Below, one piece after another: positions 8,952-63,267 of a stretch of DNA of 64,000 bases. The translations under genes were made by a program, and so were the position numbers. The notes beneath the pieces were generated by a model. The model saw only the letters and a list, made by a program, of their open reading frames with translations, was not told the DNA's origin and searched no databases. Position 1 is the first letter of the stretch. Every line of letters begins with the position of its first letter. The stretch comes from Eledone cirrhosa. Taxonomy: Eukaryota. Where the stretch lies: the NCBI GenBank assembly GCA_964016885.1, contig OZ024753.1, positions 33,356,001-33,420,000 of the forward strand, given 5' to 3'.

Positions 8952-9133
8952 TGGCAGTATCAGTAGAGGGTTGAACGCCATGCTTTGCAGCATAGAGTTA
9001 CGGCCCTTTATGATCCGAGTTCAAATCCCACCGAGGTTAACTTTGCCTTTCATCCTTACGGGGTCGATAAAATAAAGTACCAGTAATGTACTGAGATAAT
9101 TTTCGGCCTTGTGCCAAAAGTAGAAACAATTAT
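8952..9133 (+). mobile_element. SINE family A
   Basis: GAGTTCAAATCCC B-box followed by the CTTTGCCTTTCATCCTTACGGGGTCGATAAAATAAAGTACCAGT core. Confidence 0.85.
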
Positions 9134-17365: not shown

Positions 17366-17678
17366 AATATAAGATCAAAAGATGGTTGAAAGAGTTCCAA
17401 GTATTTTATTATGCGCATTTCAAAAACAAATATCATCATGGGATGATATCTGCGTTCTCATCAGATAAAATAGGGAGACATGATATGAAGCTTAAAAAAC
17501 ACTTGTGAGCAGTGAAGTTTTAAATCATCCCATGATGATATTTGTTTTTTAAATGCGCATAATAAAATGCTTGGAACTCTTTTAACCATCTTTTGATCTT
17601 ATATTATTTATACTCCAGTCCTATAAACTGTAGAGTGCTACTTATCCGATATTTGCATTGCTTTATTGTGCTACCTCC

Positions 17679-17682
<4 letters not shown>
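17366..17682 (+). mobile_element. hammerhead-bearing fold-back element, family 1 (Penelope pLTR/retrozyme-like)
   Basis: Inverted arms (AAGATCAAAAGATGG...CCATCTTTTGATCTT) flanked by (TA)n on both sides; homologous to 44676-45100 and 62975-63256. Confidence 0.8.
17402..17472 (-). ncRNA. type I hammerhead ribozyme, family 1 (intact)
   Basis: Minus strand: TATTTTAT-CTGATGA-GAACGCAGATATCATCCCATGATGATATTTGTTTTT-GAAA-TGCGCA-TA-ATAAAATA; perfect 8-bp stem I, long stem II, palindromic stem III. Confidence 0.85.
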
Positions 17683-17716
<34 letters not shown>

Positions 17717-17852
17717 GGTTAAACAAGGTTCAATGAATAAATCAATGAATAAAGTTTCACAATAGATTAGAAGCACTCCACAGTGAGGGTTTCTGGAGTT
17801 ATTAATATTACTTAAAAATATTAATAAATATAGACATTCATGTGATCAAATA

Positions 17853-17918
17853 TATTTTATGATACATATTTCAGAAGCACTGAGCTATTTCAACAGTATG
17901 TACTCATCAGATAAAATA
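17853..17918 (-). ncRNA. type I hammerhead ribozyme, family 2
   Basis: TATTTTAT-CTGATGA-GTACATACTGTTGAAATAGCTCAGTGCTTCT-GAAA-TATGTA-TC-ATAAAATA. Confidence 0.8.
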
Positions 17919-18016: not shown

Positions 18017-18082
18017 TATTTTATCTGATAAGGATGTACTGTTGAAATAGCTCAGTGCCTCTGAAATATGTATAATAAAATA
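18017..18082 (+). ncRNA. hammerhead motif, family 2, opposite arm (core mutated to CTGATAA)
   Basis: TATTTTAT-CTGATAA-GGATGTACTG...CAGTGCCTCT-GAAA-TATGTA-TA-ATAAAATA. Confidence 0.65.
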
Positions 18083-19019: not shown

Positions 19020-19379
19020 GTTGCCCCTTGCTTCCAACAAAAATGATATCCTTCTATTCATAGGATGTTAAATTATACAGGATTTTATTCCTGATTGTTT
19101 TAAATTACCATCTCTTCTCTTGGAGCACCTAATAATAGCCTTTGGGTGTTTTGTTCATCATCTCCCATAAATAGGAATAATTTTAAAAAATAATGAATTT
19201 AATTTATACAACATTCATTATTAACCGTTGGATTATATAGCATATTTAACACAGGATCATCAAAAATTGAAAGTGGTTTATCTATGTGAGATGTTTGCAG
19301 GGCGATGTTTAACAAACTTGAACCACAGTAGAATATACGTTGAAAAAACACACCGTCACTGTATGAATTCACATGCACA

Positions 19380-19722
19380 GTCGTTACATTGACGACTGTA
19401 TCGGAGCCACGACCCTCACCCGAGTACAGCTCGACTCCTTTCTCTCCTTCTTCTGCTCCTTCCACCCCTCCCTCCACTTCACCACCTCTATCTCCACCAC
19501 CCACGTCCACTTCTTAGACATCTCCGTCGCCTTCGACCCCTCCCACCACTCCTTCAAACCCACCGACTCCCTCTCTTACCTCGACTTCACCTCTTCCCAC
19601 CCCACCCACACTAAACTCTCCATTCCCTACTCCCAACTTCTCAGGATCCGCCGCCTCTGTAGCCGTGATGCTGACTTCGAGTCCCAGGCCCTTTCCCTAG
19701 TCAGCCATTTCATCCGCAGAGG

Positions 19723-19726
<4 letters not shown>
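19380..19726 (+). pseudogene. Penelope-like element reverse transcriptase fragment
   Basis: RYIDD catalytic motif, FHPSLHFT, FLD, KPTD..YLDFTSSHP..K.SIPYSQLLRIRRLCS...F.RRGY, the characteristic PLE RT C-terminal/thumb region; runs into (TA)n. Confidence 0.9.
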
Positions 19727-19964: not shown

Positions 19965-21297
19965 TCATCATCATCATCATCGTTTAACGTCCATTTTCCA
20001 CGCTAGCATGGGTCTGGACGGGAATTATCCCACTTGAGGCAAGATTGGTTGTCTTGCTCAGGACTGTCTGGCGGGTTTTCTACGGCTGGGTGCCCTTCCC
20101 AATACCAACCACGTTTACAGTGTATACTGGGAGGTTTTTACCGTGTTACCTACACGGCCACATGACAGCGTGGACTGTGTGTTTTTTTTGTTGTGACACC
20201 TACACGACCTCATTTGTTTCGGACTGGATGTTGTGGTACCAACATAACTTCGCATTTAAGGGGGTGGTGTGGATGGGGTGGAGGTAGTGGGACGGGGGTG
20301 TATTTTGTTAGAGGTGCCTACTGACTGTAGGCAAGGAGGGTCTTCTGTATAACTGTGTAGTGCCAAAGATCTCAGTCCAGTGACACTGTCTTGGAGAGGT
20401 GTAAGTGTGTGAGGTTGGAATTTATCAAGTCATCCCAGGTTTTTCTGAGTCTGCCTACTCCGTGGCTACCGTCTATTTTTATCGCCCTGAACTTTTTTAT
20501 ACAGCTGTCGTCTTTCATGCGCATCACGTGACCGTACCAACGTAGTCTTCTTTCGAGTAAACAACATCTGATCCCTCTTATTCCTAATTTCTCCCTTAGT
20601 TCGTTTATGCTTTGCCGTTCACGCATATTACTATTACACATCCAGCGGAGCATGCAAGCTTCGTTCCTCTCCAGTCTGTGTATATCCTCTGCACACAATG
20701 CCCAGGTCTCACTGCCATGTAACATTGCTGTTCATATGCAAGCATCATACAGCCTGCCTTTCATTTTTAGAGAGAACCCTTTAGCGGCCAATAGTGGTAT
20801 AAGCTCTCTGAACTTTTTCCATCCCGTTCTGACTCTAGCTTCTGTACTTTCAGAGCACCCTCCCCCACTGCTGATTTTGTCACCCAGGTAACGGAAGCTG
20901 TCCACTATTTCTATAGAACCATCTGTGCAATGGAATGAGCTAGTATTCTGTGGGCACTTGCTGCTACTTATTGCACCAGAGCACCGGCCACATATAAAAT
21001 CTATATTCTTAGTTAGCTTACCTGTGATCCCACTACATCTTTTATGCACCCATACTTTGCATTTGGAACATAAAATGGAGTTTCTGCCTACTCCTTTCCT
21101 ACACACTGAGCATGGCCATTTCCCAGATGGGACCGGTGCCCTATTTTCCTTCCTACAAACTAGAACTTTAGTCTTAGACCAGTTAGCTTTAAGGCCTTTT
21201 GATTCTAGGCCATGCTTCCATGTTTGGAATTTCTTCTCTAGTTCCGTCATTGATTCAGCTATGAGCGTTAGATCATCTGCGTATAGGAGTTCCCATG
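19965..21297 (-). mobile_element. RTE-group LINE, 5'-truncated at WELLYADD
   Basis: ORFs 20732-21358 and 20372-20725 are split by a CGA>TGA stop; highly similar to 33475-34445; has the 3' UTR and (GAT)n tail. Confidence 0.93.
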
Positions 21298-22164
21298 TGC
21301 GTGTATTTCTGAACATTGATATACACACACATATATATATATATATATACTCACTCACAGATATATACTCCTACAGAAACAAGTACACAGATAGGCTTAG
21401 ACTACGTTACTTTAAGATAGTTGGAAATAAAATTTCAAGTAAAGCAATTTGTGTGTGTGTGTGTTGTGTTTTTTGTTTGTTTGTTTTTTTCTTTTAATAC
21501 AGAATGTAATCGAAATTGGCAGCAAACTTGAGCAACACCAATTTTACACTAGAAAATCACTTTGGTGTTTCCATAAAGTCAACAAATAAGCGATAGTAAG
21601 AACATGTAATTATTTACTTAATAGAAAATTGAGAAAAAAAAATCTTGAGGAAAATAATACAAAATACAAAAGAAAAAAAAAAGAGAAAATTAGTCTTAAT
21701 CTTTATATTTTTTGTTATCACTTTTATTCAAATTTATTGTCTTTTATTTTTTATTTACCTCATCCCGGCTTTTTCTTTATCTAAAAGTAAAAATTGATGG
21801 CAAATCCCCCAAAAAAGTACACCGAGAAAATGAGAAATTATGTATTTTTTCTAAGTATTGATAAAAAATAAATAGATGAATAAAAAATAAAGCAAAAGCT
21901 ATGCAGCATCATTATCTTCCACAATCCTTTCTAGGAAAGGGGAAATAGTGATGGCAGAATTCTTTGAGAATATGACAAAATGCTTTGTTGAATTTGTTCT
22001 GCTTCTCCGAGTTCAAATCCTGCTACTGAGGTCAACTATGTCTTTCATCCTTTCAGATGAAAGATTGGCAGAATTGTTAGAGCTTTACATGAGATGCCTT
22101 GAGGTAAATATTCTAGCACTTTAATGTTCTGTGTTCCCTGATGAGCAGACTTAATCTGTTACCC

Positions 22165-24603: not shown

Positions 24604-25166
24604 GTTTCAGTGAACACTCAAAACCGATTATATTGTATTATATTACATTATATTTGTGATAGTATTAAGTCATCCAGACAAGCAGTCAATTTTACTGCTG
24701 TTTATTGATGGAAACAGGAATGGTTATTGAATTGAGTAGAAATTGAATACATACATATGAAGAGGGGGAGGATCTTAACTACAATCACTAGAAAGCAGAA
24801 AGGTTGGGTTGGGTTGGATTGGATTGGAAAAATGTAAGAAACGCTTGGAGGTGAGACAGAAAAACTCCAAACTAAACATTGCGTGCCAATAAATTTAAGT
24901 GCAAAGATTAAAGCTAATAAGATAAGTAATAAATAAGTAGATAACATAGAAATAAATAAATATATCATATATATATCATTATCATCAGTGTTTAATATCA
25001 GTTTTTCCTCACGTGCATAGGTTAAAGAGATTGTCATGTGATAAATAGGCGAAACTTCAGAGTAACAAAACTCTCTTTTTAGCTTTAATATAAATGAATA
25101 TTAAAACTACTTCGGTATTGAGTACTCCTTTCTCTCAGCCGTCAACCACTTATGATTATATATATA

Positions 25167-25345
25167 TATAGGAAAATGTTTAACCCCGACGGCAGAGCTC
25201 AAGCTGTTTCAATGGCTAGTTCTGGAGTCCAGAAATAGCCGTCAAAACGGCTTGAGCTCTGCCGTCGGGGTTAAACATTTTCTTATTACCCACTCTACTA
25301 CCCTAAGTATTGAGTACTCTGGTGTGTTATAGTCCATCTGGTTCC
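25167..25345 (+). mobile_element. fold-back element family 3 with 3' half of a hammerhead
   Basis: Palindrome of about 120 bp at 25167-25286 plus tail, flanked by (TA)n; homologous to 62764-62960; contains (G)AAA-CGGC-TTGAGCTCT-GCCG-TC. Confidence 0.75.
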
Positions 25346-26000
25346 TTACCACACCTCCTTCATTATATATATATATATATATATATGGGGGGATGGTATG
25401 TGTGTGTGTGTTGTTTCGTTCTTTTAATTTTAGATGATGATGTGTTAACCATATCAATTTCACCAGTCTGCAAGAGTCTAACCGTTTATGATTAATGCCC
25501 CTCCCCCCTTCACTAATTGATGAACAAAATTCTTTTTTTATTGTTTTCTTCTTCATCCATCCACATATTCCTGAATGTGCCATGGGAGCAGAGTCCTCAG
25601 TCTCTAGAGGGTCCTATCAGGAGCACCAGTCTCCAAATAATCTGTCAGGGTCTCAGAATCAAACCAACCAAGACTTTGAATGTTAATCAATGATCTTGCA
25701 TGTGCTCTAGCTCTCTTGATAGTTAGTTTTACCTTTAAATTCTGTCCACCAATTCTTTTCTTAGACAGTTTTATTGTATTTATATTAAACATCAATGCTG
25801 TATGTATCTAGTTTAGAATACATACATGATATCCCTGCATGTCATAAGAAGTGGCTAAAATGTTTGACACCAGGAAGGGTGTCTAGCTATAAAATATAAC
25901 CTCCAAAAGAATTCCAAGATGAGTATGAAATCTGTTTTTTAAAAAATGGTCAAAATGACCTGAAAATGCATGTTATATAAAATTATAATTATATACCATT

Positions 26001-33424: not shown

Positions 33425-35935
33425 GTGTATTTTGTTAGAGATGCCTACTGGCTGTAGTAGGTTTTACTTTGTATTTAGGTAAGGCGGGTCTTCTCTATTA
33501 CTGAGTACCGCCAAAGGTCTCGGTCCAGTGACATTGTCTTGGAGAGGTGTAAGTGTGTGAGGTCAGAATTTATCAGCTCGTCCCAGGTTTTTCTGGGTCT
33601 GCCTACTCCGTAGCTACCGTCTATCTTTATTGCCCTGCACTTTGTTATACAGCTGTCGTCTTTCATGCGTATCACGTGACCATACCAACGTAGCCTTCTC
33701 TCGAGTAAACAACATCTGATCCCTCTTATTTCTAATTTTTTCCTTAGTTCGCTTATGCTTTGCCGTTCACGTATGTTACTATTACACATCCAGCGGAGCA
33801 TGCAAGCTTCGTTCCTCTCTAGTCTGCGTATATCCTCTGCACACAATGCCCAGGTCTCACTGCCATGCAACATTGCTGTTCGTATGCAGGCATCGTACAA
33901 CCTGCCTTTCATTCTTAGGGAGAACCCTTTAGCGGCTAATAGTGGTATAAGCTCTCTGAACTTCTTCCAACCAGTTCTGACTCTAGCTACTGTACTTTCA
34001 GAGCACCCTCCCCAACTGCTGATTTTGTCGCCCAGGTAACGGAAGCTGTCCACTATTTCTATAGAACCCTCTGCGCAATTGAAAGAGCTAGTATTTTGTG
34101 GGCACTTGCTGCTACTTATTGCACCAGAGCACCGGCCACATGTAAAATCTATGTTCTTAGTTAGCTTACCTGTGATCCCACTACATCTTTTATGCACCCA
34201 TACTTTGCATTTGGGACATAAAATGAAGTTTCTACCTACGCCTTTCCTACACACTGAGCATGGCCATTTCCCGGAAGGGACCGGCGCCTTATTTTCTTTC
34301 CTACAAACTAGAACTTTAGTCTTAGCCAGGTTAATTTTAAGGCCTTTTGATTCTACGCCGTGCTTCCATGTTTGGAATTTCTTCTCTAGCTCGGCCATTG
34401 ATTCAGCTATGAGCGTTAGATCGTCTGCGTATAGGAGTTCCCATGGGCAGCCGGTCTTGAACTTCTCTGTTATAGCCTGAAGGGCAATAATAAATAGGAG
34501 GGGGCTAAGAACAGAGCCCTGATGGACACCAACCTTTACGCTAAACTCTTCACTATATTCGTTGTTAATTCTAACCTTGCTGACTGTTTCTTTATACATG
34601 GCTTGTATAGCTCTGACAAGCCATTCGTCAACACCTAGTTTTCTAAGAGCCCACCAGATAATGGAACGGGGGACTCTGTCGAAGGCTTTCTCCAAGTCAA
34701 CAAAAGCTAAGTATAGGGGTTTACTTTTAGCTAGGTACTTCTCCTGTAGTTGTCGTACAATGAAAAGAGCGTCTGTGGTACTTTTGCCTGACACAAACCC
34801 GAACTGCATTTCATCTAGATCAATTCTCTCTCATTAGTTGCGCTATTACTTTTTCCGTGACCTTCATGACCTGGTCGATTAATTTAATGCCTCTATAGTT
34901 ACACCTATCTAGGGCATCTCCTTTACCCTTGTAACAGTTAATGATGATGCTGCTACGCCAGTCCTTCGGAACAACCCCATTCTGTATGACTTGGTTTACT
35001 ATCCGGGAGACCATGGTGTGTCCCACCGTTCCAGAGGCTTTCAGCATCTCAGCAACTATTTCCAAAGGCCCAGCCGCCTTTCCCGTCTTCATATCTTTGA
35101 TTGCCTTACTTATTATACTCCCTTCAACTAACACTGCTGGTCCCTCTATTGGGTCGATGTGGGGGAGACTGTCTTTCTCCCATTTATTCTCGTCATTTAG
35201 AAGCCTTTCGTAGTGACTCTTCCATGCTACCTTCTTATCAGCATCAGTGATGGCAAGTACGCCTTCATCATTAAGTACACACTTCTCCCCGACAATATCA
35301 CGGTTTTCCTTGACACATTGCCTAGCAATCCTGAACACCTCCCGTTTTTGGTCCGCGCGTTGTAGAACATGCTTGAACTTTCTTTCCTCTGCTTCCCTTC
35401 TTGCGAAGTACACTTGTCTTCTAGCTTCCCTCCTGGCCACTTGATAGTCTTCTCTACTTACCCCATCCCGCCATACTTTCCAAGCCTGCTTTTTGGCCTT
35501 AATTGACTCCTCCACCTTACTGTTCCACCACCATGTTACTCTCCTACCTACCGGCCTGCTCCAGCCACAGACTTCGTCTGCCACCGTCAGCAGGTTTGCT
35601 TTCAGGAATTCCCACTGATCCTCTATATTATACGACTAATTGCTCTTCCTTACTGTCGAAAGCATCAAGTAATATGCTTTGAAATTTATTTCTGGCTGTG
35701 GGGTCCTTTAGCTTCCATATTTTTCTCCTGAGGATAGTCCTCTTCTGCTGTCTAGTACGTCTCGTCCTGACTATGAGGTCGCTAATTATCAGTCTATGTT
35801 GGGAGGTGCATTCTTCATGGGGGAGGGATTTAGTGTTAACAACAGACACTCTGTCACGTCTTCTGGTAAGGATATAATCTACCTGGCTTGTGTGTTCCCC
35901 CGATCTATAGGTGATCAAGTGATTGTCTCGTTTTT
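33425..35935 (-). mobile_element. RTE-group (RTE-X-like) LINE, 5'-truncated, about 2.5 kb
   Basis: Collinear ORF pieces 35918-35628 (end of the AP endonuclease: TY.SG...SQVDYIL...SQHRL), 35584-34820 and 34809-33475; one stop and one frameshift; the 5' side runs into a microsatellite. Confidence 0.95.
33475..34809 (-). CDS. reverse transcriptase of the RTE-group LINE, with inserted PHD finger (frameshift-isolated part)
   Basis: QFGF, FVDLEKAFD, GVHQGSVLSPLLF, LLYADD, FRYLG, RRLRWYGHV, GRPRKTW motifs. Confidence 0.9.
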   Translation of the reverse strand: MQFGFVSGKSTTDALFIVRQLQEKYLAKSKPLYLAFVDLEKAFDRVPRSIIWWALRKLGVDEWLVRAIQAMYKETVSKVRINNEYSEEFSVKVGVHQGSVLSPLLFIIALQAITEKFKTGCPWELLYADDLTLIAESMAELEKKFQTWKHGVESKGLKINLAKTKVLVCRKENKAPVPSGKWPCSVCRKGVGRNFILCPKCKVWVHKRCSGITGKLTKNIDFTCGRCSGAISSSKCPQNTSSFNCAEGSIEIVDSFRYLGDKISSWGGCSESTVARVRTGWKKFRELIPLLAAKGFSLRMKGRLYDACIRTAMLHGSETWALCAEDIRRLERNEACMLRWMCNSNIRERQSISELRKKLEIRGIRCCLLERRLRWYGHVIRMKDDSCITKCRAIKIDGSYGVGRPRKTWDELINSDLTHLHLSKTMSLDRDLWRYSVIEKTRLT

Positions 35936-61635: not shown

Positions 61636-61648
61636 GTATATCATTATC

Positions 61649-62162
61649 GTTATACTTTGGGAGGGTCATGTTGCCAATAAGAAACACACGCACCAGTTGC
61701 TTTCACTTCAATTTATTATATATTTATAAATTTATAAATTTACAAATTTACAAACCCATAAATTTCTGGTTGGTTGGTTGGTTCCACAACCAGATAGTTG
61801 TTTATATATATAGTCATAGTCCTCCCGTCACACACTCTGTGACCTCCTCAGTGACTGGGGATTCCTTTCTTCGTTTCTGTGCCCCTCCCTTCTTCTATCT
61901 CACGCCATTTTGTTTCAGAAGAAGGGAGGGGCACAGAAACGAAGAAAGGAATCCCCAGTCACTGAGGAGGTCACAGAGTGTGTGACGGGAGGACTATGAC
62001 TATATATAAACAACTATCTGGTTGTGGAACTAACCAACCAACCAGAAATTTATGGGTTTGTAAATTTGTAAATTTATAAATTTATAAATATATAATAAAT
62101 TGAAGTGAAAGCAACTGGTGCGTGTGTTTCTTATTGGCAACATGACCCTCCCAAAGTATAAC
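61649..62162. repeat. near-perfect long inverted repeat (arms about 247 bp, 20-nt loop)
   Basis: 61649-61896 is the reverse complement of 61917-62162, apart from about one mismatch and one TA indel. Confidence 0.95.
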
Positions 62163-62710
62163 AATATCGGTTTCAACACACGATTTCAGATAAAGAATCT
62201 TGCTAAACAAATTCAGAAACGAAATATATCATTATCATTTAACATCTAATGTTCTATGCTTGTATGTGTTAGAAACACTTCATTTTTGAATTTGTTTCGC
62301 AAGATTCTTATCTGAAAATGTATGTTGAAACAGATATTGTTCTACTTTGGGAGAGTCATACTACCAATAACAACAAAATAGCCATTCGATTATTAAACTA
62401 ACTGGCAGGGTGTTTATAATAAATTGAAGTGAAAATCCAACAGATGTGTGTTTTTATAGGCAGCATGGCCCTCAAAGTATAATATATATATATACATACA
62501 TACAAACGTTCCATAGCTAAGGGGCTTTTGGGGAAACTTGTTGAATAATCTAACAGTTTTGTTAGTTATTGACTCTAAATATGTTAATATAATCATGTTT
62601 TTAATTTCTTTCTTAGTCTTGTAATGGTGGTGAAAAAGCGCGAGTTAATAATAATATACATGAACAGTATATATAGTTAAGCTTCTTCAATCTGAAACTG
62701 CTAAGACAGG

Positions 62711-62763
<53 letters not shown>

Positions 62764-62766
<3 letters not shown>

Positions 62767-62960
62767 GAAGGAGTTGTGGTAAGGAATCAGATGGACCATA
62801 ACGCACCAAAGTACTCAATACTTAGGGTAGTAGAGTGGGTAATAGGAAAATGTATGACCTCGACGGCAGAGCTCAAGCCGTTTCGACGGCTATTTCTGGA
62901 TATAGTCCAGAAATAGCCGTTGAAACGGCTTGAGCTCTGCTGTCAGGGTCATACATTTTC
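62764..62960 (-). mobile_element. fold-back element family 3 with 3' half of a hammerhead
   Basis: Inverted homologue of 25167-25345; the minus strand has GCCGTC-GAAA-CGGCTTGAGCTCTGCCG-TC-GAGGTC. Confidence 0.75.
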
Positions 62961-62974
62961 ACATATACAGGGAT

Positions 62975-63256
62975 GTATCATGAGATGATATTTGCGTTCT
63001 CATCAGATAAAATAGGGAGACATATGAAGCTTAAAAAACACTTGCGAGCAGTGAAGTGTTAAATCAACATCTGATGAGAACGCAAATATCATCCCATGAT
63101 GATATTTGTTTTTGAAATGCGCATAATAAAATACATGGAACTCTTTTAACCATCTTTTGGTTTTATATTATTTATACTCCAGTCCTATAAACTGTTGAGT
63201 TCTACTTATCCGATATGTGCATTGCTTTATTGTGCTACAATAAAACTCACCTCTAC
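62975..63256 (+). mobile_element. hammerhead-bearing fold-back element, family 1
   Basis: Same sequence as the copies at 17366 and 44676, with a partial inverted arm at 62975-63070. Confidence 0.8.
63069..63133 (+). ncRNA. hammerhead core, family 1 (5' strand of stem I cut to 2 nt)
   Basis: AT-CTGATGA-GAACGCAAATATCATCCCATGATGATATTTGTTTTT-GAAA-TGCGCA-TA-ATAAAATA. Confidence 0.75.
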
Positions 63257-63267
63257 ATATATATGTC

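Follow-up and report, generated by a model that had tools for sequence, protein, structure and literature searches.

The window analysed here is the whole 64-kb stretch (64,000 nt) of Eledone cirrhosa DNA, and it contains nine sites at which a short bulged RNA hairpin had been named in an initial annotation. All nine were confirmed at their coordinates and on their strands. The hairpin has the consensus RCTC-Y..loop..R-TN-GAGY-RCT, and two copies of it, designated H1 and H2, lie between a hammerhead ribozyme and the start codon of the elements that carry it. The order in these elements is hammerhead, site 1, H1, site 2, H2 and start codon, where sites 1 and 2 are the points at which genomic insertions end. 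The hairpins of the window and the features beside them are as follows.

17367..17507, minus strand: short arm of a family-1 fold-back (with 17531..17681), ending in (TA)n at site 1, before H1
17410-17464: complete minimal hammerhead in this short arm
17531..17681, plus strand: long arm of the family-1 fold-back, which runs from a hammerhead 3' half whose GAAA box is damaged, through H1 and the tail, to its (TA)n end at site 2
17612..17639, plus strand: H1 of family 1 (inner pairing CAG/CTG), by covariance model and direct check
17772..17799, minus strand: H1 of family 2, by covariance model and direct check
17861..17910, minus strand: minimal hammerhead in the family-2 long arm
18025-18074, plus strand: damaged-core hammerhead copy in the arm opposite the family-2 long arm
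25049-25064: hammerhead 3' half beside the damaged H1 of the next line
25106..25126, plus strand: damaged H1 of the TTCG-loop family, with 2 nt missing from the 5' outer strand, without a link to an ORF
25292..25318, plus strand: H1 of family 3, which is family A (TAC/GTA), inside the long arm 25226-25369, with an inverted short arm to the left
42283..42305, minus strand: H1 of family B (CAA/TTG), in a copy cut down to H1 and tail (42220-42312) within (TA)n
44664..44823, minus strand: family-1 short arm with a hammerhead at 44718-44771, ending at site 1
44862..45104, plus strand: family-1 long arm with a hammerhead at 44915-44969, ending at site 2
45022..45049, plus strand: H1 of family 1, by covariance model and direct check
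48079-48093: hammerhead 3' half beside the damaged H1 of the next line
48128..48150, plus strand: damaged H1 of a further family, without a link to an ORF, with a look-alike copy in locus L078
62810..62836, minus strand: H1 of family A, in the long arm 62759-62900, which ends at site 2
63176..63203, plus strand: H1 of family 1, in the long arm 63069-63258 with a hammerhead at 63071-63125

All three inner pairs are intact in seven of the nine sites. Across 200 block shuffles of the window the mean was 0.005 fully paired copies (maximum 1), and the reversed window gave 1. A covariance model built from 42 sequences, among them four of the nine window sites, matched exactly the nine named sites in the window at E<=2. 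The hairpin had been placed 25-60 nt 3' of a hammerhead cleavage site, and such a site is indeed predicted 25-61 nt upstream in six of seven full copies (50, 52, 50, 61, 25 and 25 nt), but several of the neighbouring hammerheads are 3' halves only. The hammerheads beside the 17612 copy and both family-3 copies proved to be 3' halves, the first with its GAAA box damaged, and there is none at the 42283 copy; all four of these copies are 5'-truncated. The copy at 63176-63203 ends in TCT instead of the RCT trailer. The ACUC/GAGU stem that had been described as fixed is nearly invariant, but its first outer pair is A-U in H1 of this genome and G-C in H2 and in other hosts. The initial annotation had allowed for an existing Rfam entry, and none was matched at the hairpins: Rfam 15, including its RT-n motifs, gave no match there in the window (E<=5, 150 of 152 matches listed) or in eight loci with an intact hairpin pair (E<=0.5). 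Rfam hits elsewhere were all sub-threshold and were set aside; the majority were miRNA models that fell on simple repeats or long inverted repeats.

The H1 pattern is abundant in the 3.0-Gb genome, with 127,242 matches versus 2,723 in the reversed control; as copies with longer loops also occur, this is a lower bound. The window and 554,761 nt of sequence surrounding the matches listed together yielded 87 distinct copies. All three inner positions are paired in 75 of them, 66 of these by Watson-Crick pairs alone, and the first inner pair is TA in 49, CG in 31 and something else in 7. The canonical hammerhead pattern detected a same-strand core within 260 nt in 28/87 copies, a score that is explained in large part by truncation and by the variant core of family A.

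The elements that carry the hairpin were identified from their coding sequence. Fragments of a Penelope-like element (PLE) reverse transcriptase (RT) and GIY-YIG endonuclease are encoded in frames upstream of three motif loci, and a search with these fragments recovered intact elements, including a four-unit tandem of family A with a 3,542-bp period and a 719-aa ORF. This single ORF encodes an RT (YRDD at 348) with a C-terminal GIY-YIG domain (YIG at 606), and has RWR at 37, DKT at 117, a CxCx5C linker at 572, CxxC at 670 and CxH at 698, with no GxKF. Among 120 homologues RW[KR] was present in 114 and DK[TS] in 118, and the full-length homologues carry PF26215/PF28514. A hammerhead is located in the pLTR, with a canonical core in families 1, 2 and B; that of family A has a U3-A8 core variant, a GUC site (read by eye) and a stable stem III. 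Three family-A copies (L008, L019 and L099) start at the predicted hammerhead cleavage site. By these motifs, the hammerhead and (TA)n targeting, the sequences identify the carriers as PLEs of the Hydra clade. Most of the sampled copies (70/87) align to one of six intact leaders that precede a Hydra-type ORF, and the other 17 match none of them.

The carriers resemble the published Hydra clade (PMC8557442) in their single RT and GIY-YIG ORF, RWR, DKT, CxCx5C and CxxC/CxH motifs, pLTR hammerhead, (TA)n target, and tandem and inverted copies. In the available text of that source, Hydra-clade proteins are described as having an RWK-type motif, a GxKF/Y motif that is not conserved and DKT in place of DKG, and the elements as generally <3 kb. 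The family-A tandem unit, at 3,542 bp, exceeds this norm, which is descriptive and not absolute, because of a long 3' UTR. The tail measures 78-96 nt here and 53-83 nt in other hosts, in contrast to the usual 30-40 nt. On sequence grounds, the elements would be new members of this known clade.

Other repeats in the window were considered as well. A Neptune-like PLE fragment at 19370-19726 (plus strand) is young and C-rich, with 150 scored matches at 96-100% identity; it has DKG and CX4CxxC and belongs to a distinct family, whose element is ~4.4 kb long, has its own hammerhead and ends in (TA)n. It was rejected as the source of the hairpin: a covariance-model search of its five long copies found no hairpin inside them and four matches outside the elements. 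By this comparison the hairpin is not shared by all PLEs. A 3' hairpin is also carried by Helitron/Helentron elements. This candidate was rejected too, as the carriers encode a PLE RT and GIY-YIG. Two copies of a LINE-type RT ORF, at 33475-35635 and 20372-21370 on the minus strand, have a PHD finger within their C-terminal region (Pfam RVT_1 and PHD). An abundant repeat of ~150 nt, which resembles a tRNA-derived SINE, is present at 8952-9093 and in about ten other places in the window, as well as in other loci. At 61645-62166 there is a 99% inverted repeat of 166 nt with hammerhead-like core boxes at 61845 (minus) and 61962 (plus), probably a fold-back copy of another PLE family in which the hairpin is absent. 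At 62759-63258 a family-A fold-back adjoins a family-1 fold-back with a cut-off short arm, so that two families share one insertion site.

The second hairpin was predicted from one intact family-A element. There, H1 starts 165 nt ahead of the start codon, and a hairpin built in the same way, with a first pair of G-C instead of A-U, starts 78 nt after H1 and just past the point at which genomic copies stop. H2 was then found in seven more coding families of this genome, namely families 1, 2 and B and four others. In intact family-1 elements H2 lies 90 nt beyond H1 and is accompanied by a Hydra-type ORF, intact family-B elements carry hammerhead, H1, H2 and ORF, and five of six inspected intact family-2 loci have both H2 and the ORF. 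The tail is 78-96 nt long in this genome. A pattern of paired H1 and H2 gave 1,043 matches in the genome versus 0 in the control; that H1 alone is so much more frequent (127,242) is as expected if H2 is omitted from terminal copies. Among 30 paired-pattern loci examined, 22 have the start of a Hydra-type ORF directly after the pair; most of the others are cut off after H2, and two represent non-coding types. The TTCG-loop family has intact relatives of the 25106..25126 copy (L007 and L002), but a search for an intact copy of this family with H2 found none, and the hairpins at 25106-25126 and 48128-48150 therefore remain unlinked to an ORF.

One non-coding element is a tandem unit of 1,322 bp with no ORF match and at most 72 open codons, yet it retains the hammerhead, H1 (with a new inner pairing, CGT/ACG) and H2. 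It occurs in tandem and inverted at L287 (G000:C1:130882000-130891999), and also at L292-L294, L260 and L244. It is retrozyme-like, with a minimal hammerhead, and is frequent among the paired-pattern matches. PLE pLTR hammerheads and non-LTR retrozymes share this neighbourhood (PMC4209133; bioRxiv 10.64898/2026.07.22.740005). The hairpins are separate from the ribozyme fold and go unmentioned for minimal type-I hammerheads in the available text of the same two sources. A different arrangement was seen at L291 (G000:C1:202171500-202176499), where two near-identical tandem hairpins, one with a G-U first pair, lie 3' of a Hydra-type endonuclease fragment, possibly as a local duplication.

Related elements in other hosts were collected with a protein-based scan that was blind to the motif and comprised 78 metagenome-contig loci (the best 80 of 412) and 15 prokaryote genome records. 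The Hydra-type PLE ORFs in those 15 records (L229-L243; metagenome-assembled or symbiont genomes) most likely represent host contamination. None of 17 candidate viral contigs checked was related. The 78 ORF starts from other hosts fell into 53 families, 41 of which have a leader of at least 150 nt in their best member, on which the hairpins were tallied. Under a strict rule two hairpins were found in 29 of the 41 families, one in 10 and none in 2; under a relaxed rule these numbers were 33, 6 and 2. Control regions gave three matches in 99,169 nt of ORF interiors and six in antisense leaders. The spacing between H1 and H2 is 53-83 nt, H2 lies 34-71 nt ahead of the ORF, and of the 28 families with enough sequence, 25 have a hammerhead core upstream. 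Both hairpins are kept across families at 41-78% protein identity, with the spacers between them diverging. The hairpin was also recognised in four of six published consensi read by eye from File S7 of PMC8557442. Hydra-1_Ajap has both hairpins ahead of the start codon, while at its 3' end the consensus terminates short of H1; H1 is present near the 3' ends of Hydra-2_Amil and Hydra-2_Ajap, Hydra-1_Crog has a variant hairpin, and none was recognised by eye in the consensi of Hydra-1_Amil and Hydra-1_Obim (PMC8557442).

The inner base pairs had been said to covary, and the other-host hairpins bore this out for inner pair 1. That pair is intact in all 82 hairpins (58 CG, 23 TA and 1 GT), compared to a shuffle mean of 63.7, and 0/5000 shuffles reached 82. 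On a protein tree of 38 families (one too short was omitted), H1 pair 1 changed on both sides in 7/7 independent contrasts (p = 0.016). Pairs 2 and 3 of H1 are paired in 30/37 (shuffle mean 18.8) and 22/27 (mean 11.3) of the other-host hairpins, with few independent contrasts on the tree. H2 is weaker, its inner stem in many cases reduced to one pair, with pair 2 paired in 21/39 and T-T in 15/39. The outer stem barely covaries; it had to be complementary by the search rule, and all 82 other-host hairpins read GCTC/GAGC, so that an A-U first outer pair is so far confined to H1 of the E. cirrhosa genome. The nearly invariant stem, first bulge base and trailer suggest sequence-specific recognition. 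In a structure-fitted alignment of 119 rows, 49-61 rows are gapped at the inner pairs and its pair counts were given little weight. Taken singly, the copies fold weakly (-2.9 to -8 kcal/mol, z -0.2 to -2.0), with similar values for the opposite strand, and for the 17772 copy a different fold is predicted.

The hairpins coincide with the ends of insertions. Genomic copies run out into (TA)n at two sharply defined sites, which lie 0-6 nt ahead of H1 and H2, respectively, and a TA-like stretch is present at each. Ends lie within -10 to +2 nt of an H1 or H2 start in 19/21 cases for family 1, 38/41 for family B and 52/63 for family A, and 100 of 109 ends at site 1 or site 2 run into TA repeats. In other hosts, counted from copies at least 87% identical and 50 nt long, 20/32 ends, in 17/20 families, lie within -8 to +1 of a hairpin; TA masking moved three ends of one family from -3 to -12/-13, and these were scored as misses. 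Contigs from run X2, which were not selected for the motif but possibly derive from the same sample as the genome, have loose (AT)n ends at both sites, 352 of them at site 2 and 82 at site 1, and their depth drops roughly 200-fold across site 2.

Fold-back insertions join a site-2 arm, which has H1 and the tail, to a site-1 arm, which has neither. Both fold-backs at 17367-17681 and 44664-45104 of the window are of this kind, the left arm stopping before H1 and the right arm bearing it. Among 43 fold-back insertions, 37 combine site 1 with site 2, one combines site 2 with site 2 and five have one unclassified arm; the loci were selected on H1 and overlapping loci were perhaps counted twice. With equal and independent choice of site, about a third would be expected to combine site 2 with site 2 (P = 4e-6). 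Owing to the selection on H1, insertions of site 1 with site 1 are hardly visible in this count. The junctions of family-A fold-backs are concentrated at a hammerhead palindrome, 51-75 nt ahead of H1. Both arms of a fold-back overlap in sequence, and one-template twin priming is thus no simple explanation; two templates or repeated copying would be needed.

In the published work on PLEs, the choice of RT start, the tail and the formation of inverted copies are named as an open task (PMC8557442), and start sites have been mapped biochemically in one element, without a defined RNA determinant (PMC11167929). In that element, the purified Anolis Poseidon protein cuts AT-rich DNA, extends both of its strands, and initiates within the RNA at two sites on either side of the tail, by a stem-loop 3' of the hammerhead and with no need for ribozyme cleavage (PMC11167929). 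The two sites around the tail and the AT-rich target are alike in the two systems, as the extension of both strands would be. Unlike Poseidon, for which one stem-loop inside the ORF and no conserved consensus are described, the elements studied here have two hairpins of one clade-wide consensus upstream of the ORF, each 3' of its site. The Anolis stem-loop, compared by description, is AC-rich with starts inside it, and may be unrelated (PMC11167929).

Taken together, these results are consistent with H1 and H2 being a clade-wide RNA signal that positions RT starts and defines the PLE tail, which we regard, from sequence comparison, as the probable reading. The hairpin would act on the element RNA as a protein-binding signal that sets the RT start. 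The RT/GIY-YIG protein would bind the invariant stem, the 2-nt bulge and the single-stranded RCT, cut a (TA)n target, and use the TA-like stretch immediately 5' of the hairpin it has bound to prime cDNA synthesis. H2 is not part of the terminal segment that is copied; it can therefore have no role in that product and would most simply act on the template RNA. Insertions end 5' of each hairpin and not 3', which makes a classical 3'-end signal less likely than a start-site signal. The conserved cis-acting structure of the initial annotation is thereby upheld, as the hairpin is clade-wide, covarying and tied to element ends; of the refuting outcomes named there, none was seen, with annotation looked up in Rfam and covariation examined on the protein tree. 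The suggested RT recognition or 3'-end signal fits the ends, with the classical 3'-end form now less likely, and endonuclease recognition at the DNA level is less favoured. Less securely inferred is that a single event makes use of both hairpins, each serving one target strand, with two 5'-truncated cDNAs joined head to head; such joining would yield the known one-sided tail. Non-coding derivatives in which hammerhead, H1 and H2 are retained may be mobilised in trans. That both hairpins together form a clade-wide two-part RT-loading element, with one RNP priming both strands of the cut (TA)n, is put forward tentatively, as a possibility that could readily prove wrong.

Telomerase template-boundary elements, the hepadnavirus epsilon and LINE/R2 3'-UTR stem-loops are RNA elements that position an RT. 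The likeness, which is by description, is that a small RT-bound bulged stem-loop would define the start or end of copying; here, in contrast, there are two copies of the signal, positioned 3' of start sites that would be internal.

Among the alternatives, only H2 could mark a start, with the short arm arising by snap-back of the cDNA and H1, folded in the cDNA or bound by protein, stopping the second synthesis. One end of each type would result here too, the reverse strand folds to a similar degree, and the two arms overlap, often with a common truncation point, at -51 to -75 and the hammerhead palindrome for both arms in family A. However, in other hosts site 1 is also where copies with a complete ORF end (L160, L164, L188, L209 and L224), H1 and H2 have a common asymmetric consensus on one strand, and both Anolis sites were reported as RT starts in vitro (PMC11167929). 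We therefore consider this explanation unlikely.

It is still less probable that a host nuclease cuts the RNA 5' of each stem, recognising a minihelix with a 3' RCT trailer, followed by ordinary priming at the 3' end. A hairpin stem with such a trailer loosely recalls a tRNA acceptor arm, and the ends do lie 0-6 nt 5' of the stems. Yet no tRNA-like Rfam match was found at the hairpins, the offsets vary with the nearest TA-like stretch, and the Anolis protein starts internally on uncut RNA (PMC11167929).

We also give little credence to recognition of the motif in DNA, whether in the duplex of the donor or in a single strand extruded from it, with the GIY-YIG endonuclease or the CxCx5C linker reading it while intermediates are resolved. 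The core letters are nearly invariant in the alignment of 119 rows, and wobble counts, used as a strand test, neither separate RNA from cDNA nor favour RNA (G-U versus A-C, 8 versus 6 in other hosts and 10 versus 11 in this genome); moreover, the Penelope endonuclease of D. virilis needed the tail for DNA recognition (cited in PMC11167929). Against this, new insertions are in (TA)n at a great distance from any donor, the terminal segment that is copied does not include H2, and there is covariation across the bulge. The inner spacing varies widely, from 6 to 24 nt in other hosts and up to 26 in one family of this genome, in keeping with a folded single strand rather than a DNA site of fixed spacing. 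Finally, translation regulators in the 5' UTR or promoter elements, with the neighbouring ends a side effect, would suit the position of H2 34-71 nt ahead of the start codon in other hosts, but both copies coincide with an end and the non-coding tandem element keeps both, making this very improbable.

The motif was not found described in the openly available full-text literature searched, including the available text of PMC8557442, PMC11167929, PMC4209133, PMC5737381, PMC10085705, PMC6765202 and bioRxiv 10.64898/2026.07.22.740005. In PMC8557442 the hairpins are undescribed in the available text, with 'stem-loop' occurring 0 times in the main text and 'hairpin' 0 times in the supplements. This is apparently, then, an undescribed duplicated cis element tied to the known but unexplained phenomenon of the PLE tail.

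If the proposal is correct, a two-part RT-loading element would explain both the PLE tail and the fold-back insertions. For the first time an RNA recognition motif would then be defined for an RT of telomerase's sister group, and the hairpin, at ~25 nt, would be a portable signal that directs the copying of any RNA placed upstream. The consensus predicts both ends in dozens of divergent families and so allows a direct mutational test. It is also a simple marker for Hydra-type elements and their non-coding parasites, with >127,000 copies in this genome, and the hairpin offers a point of comparison for RNA recognition by telomerase-related RTs.
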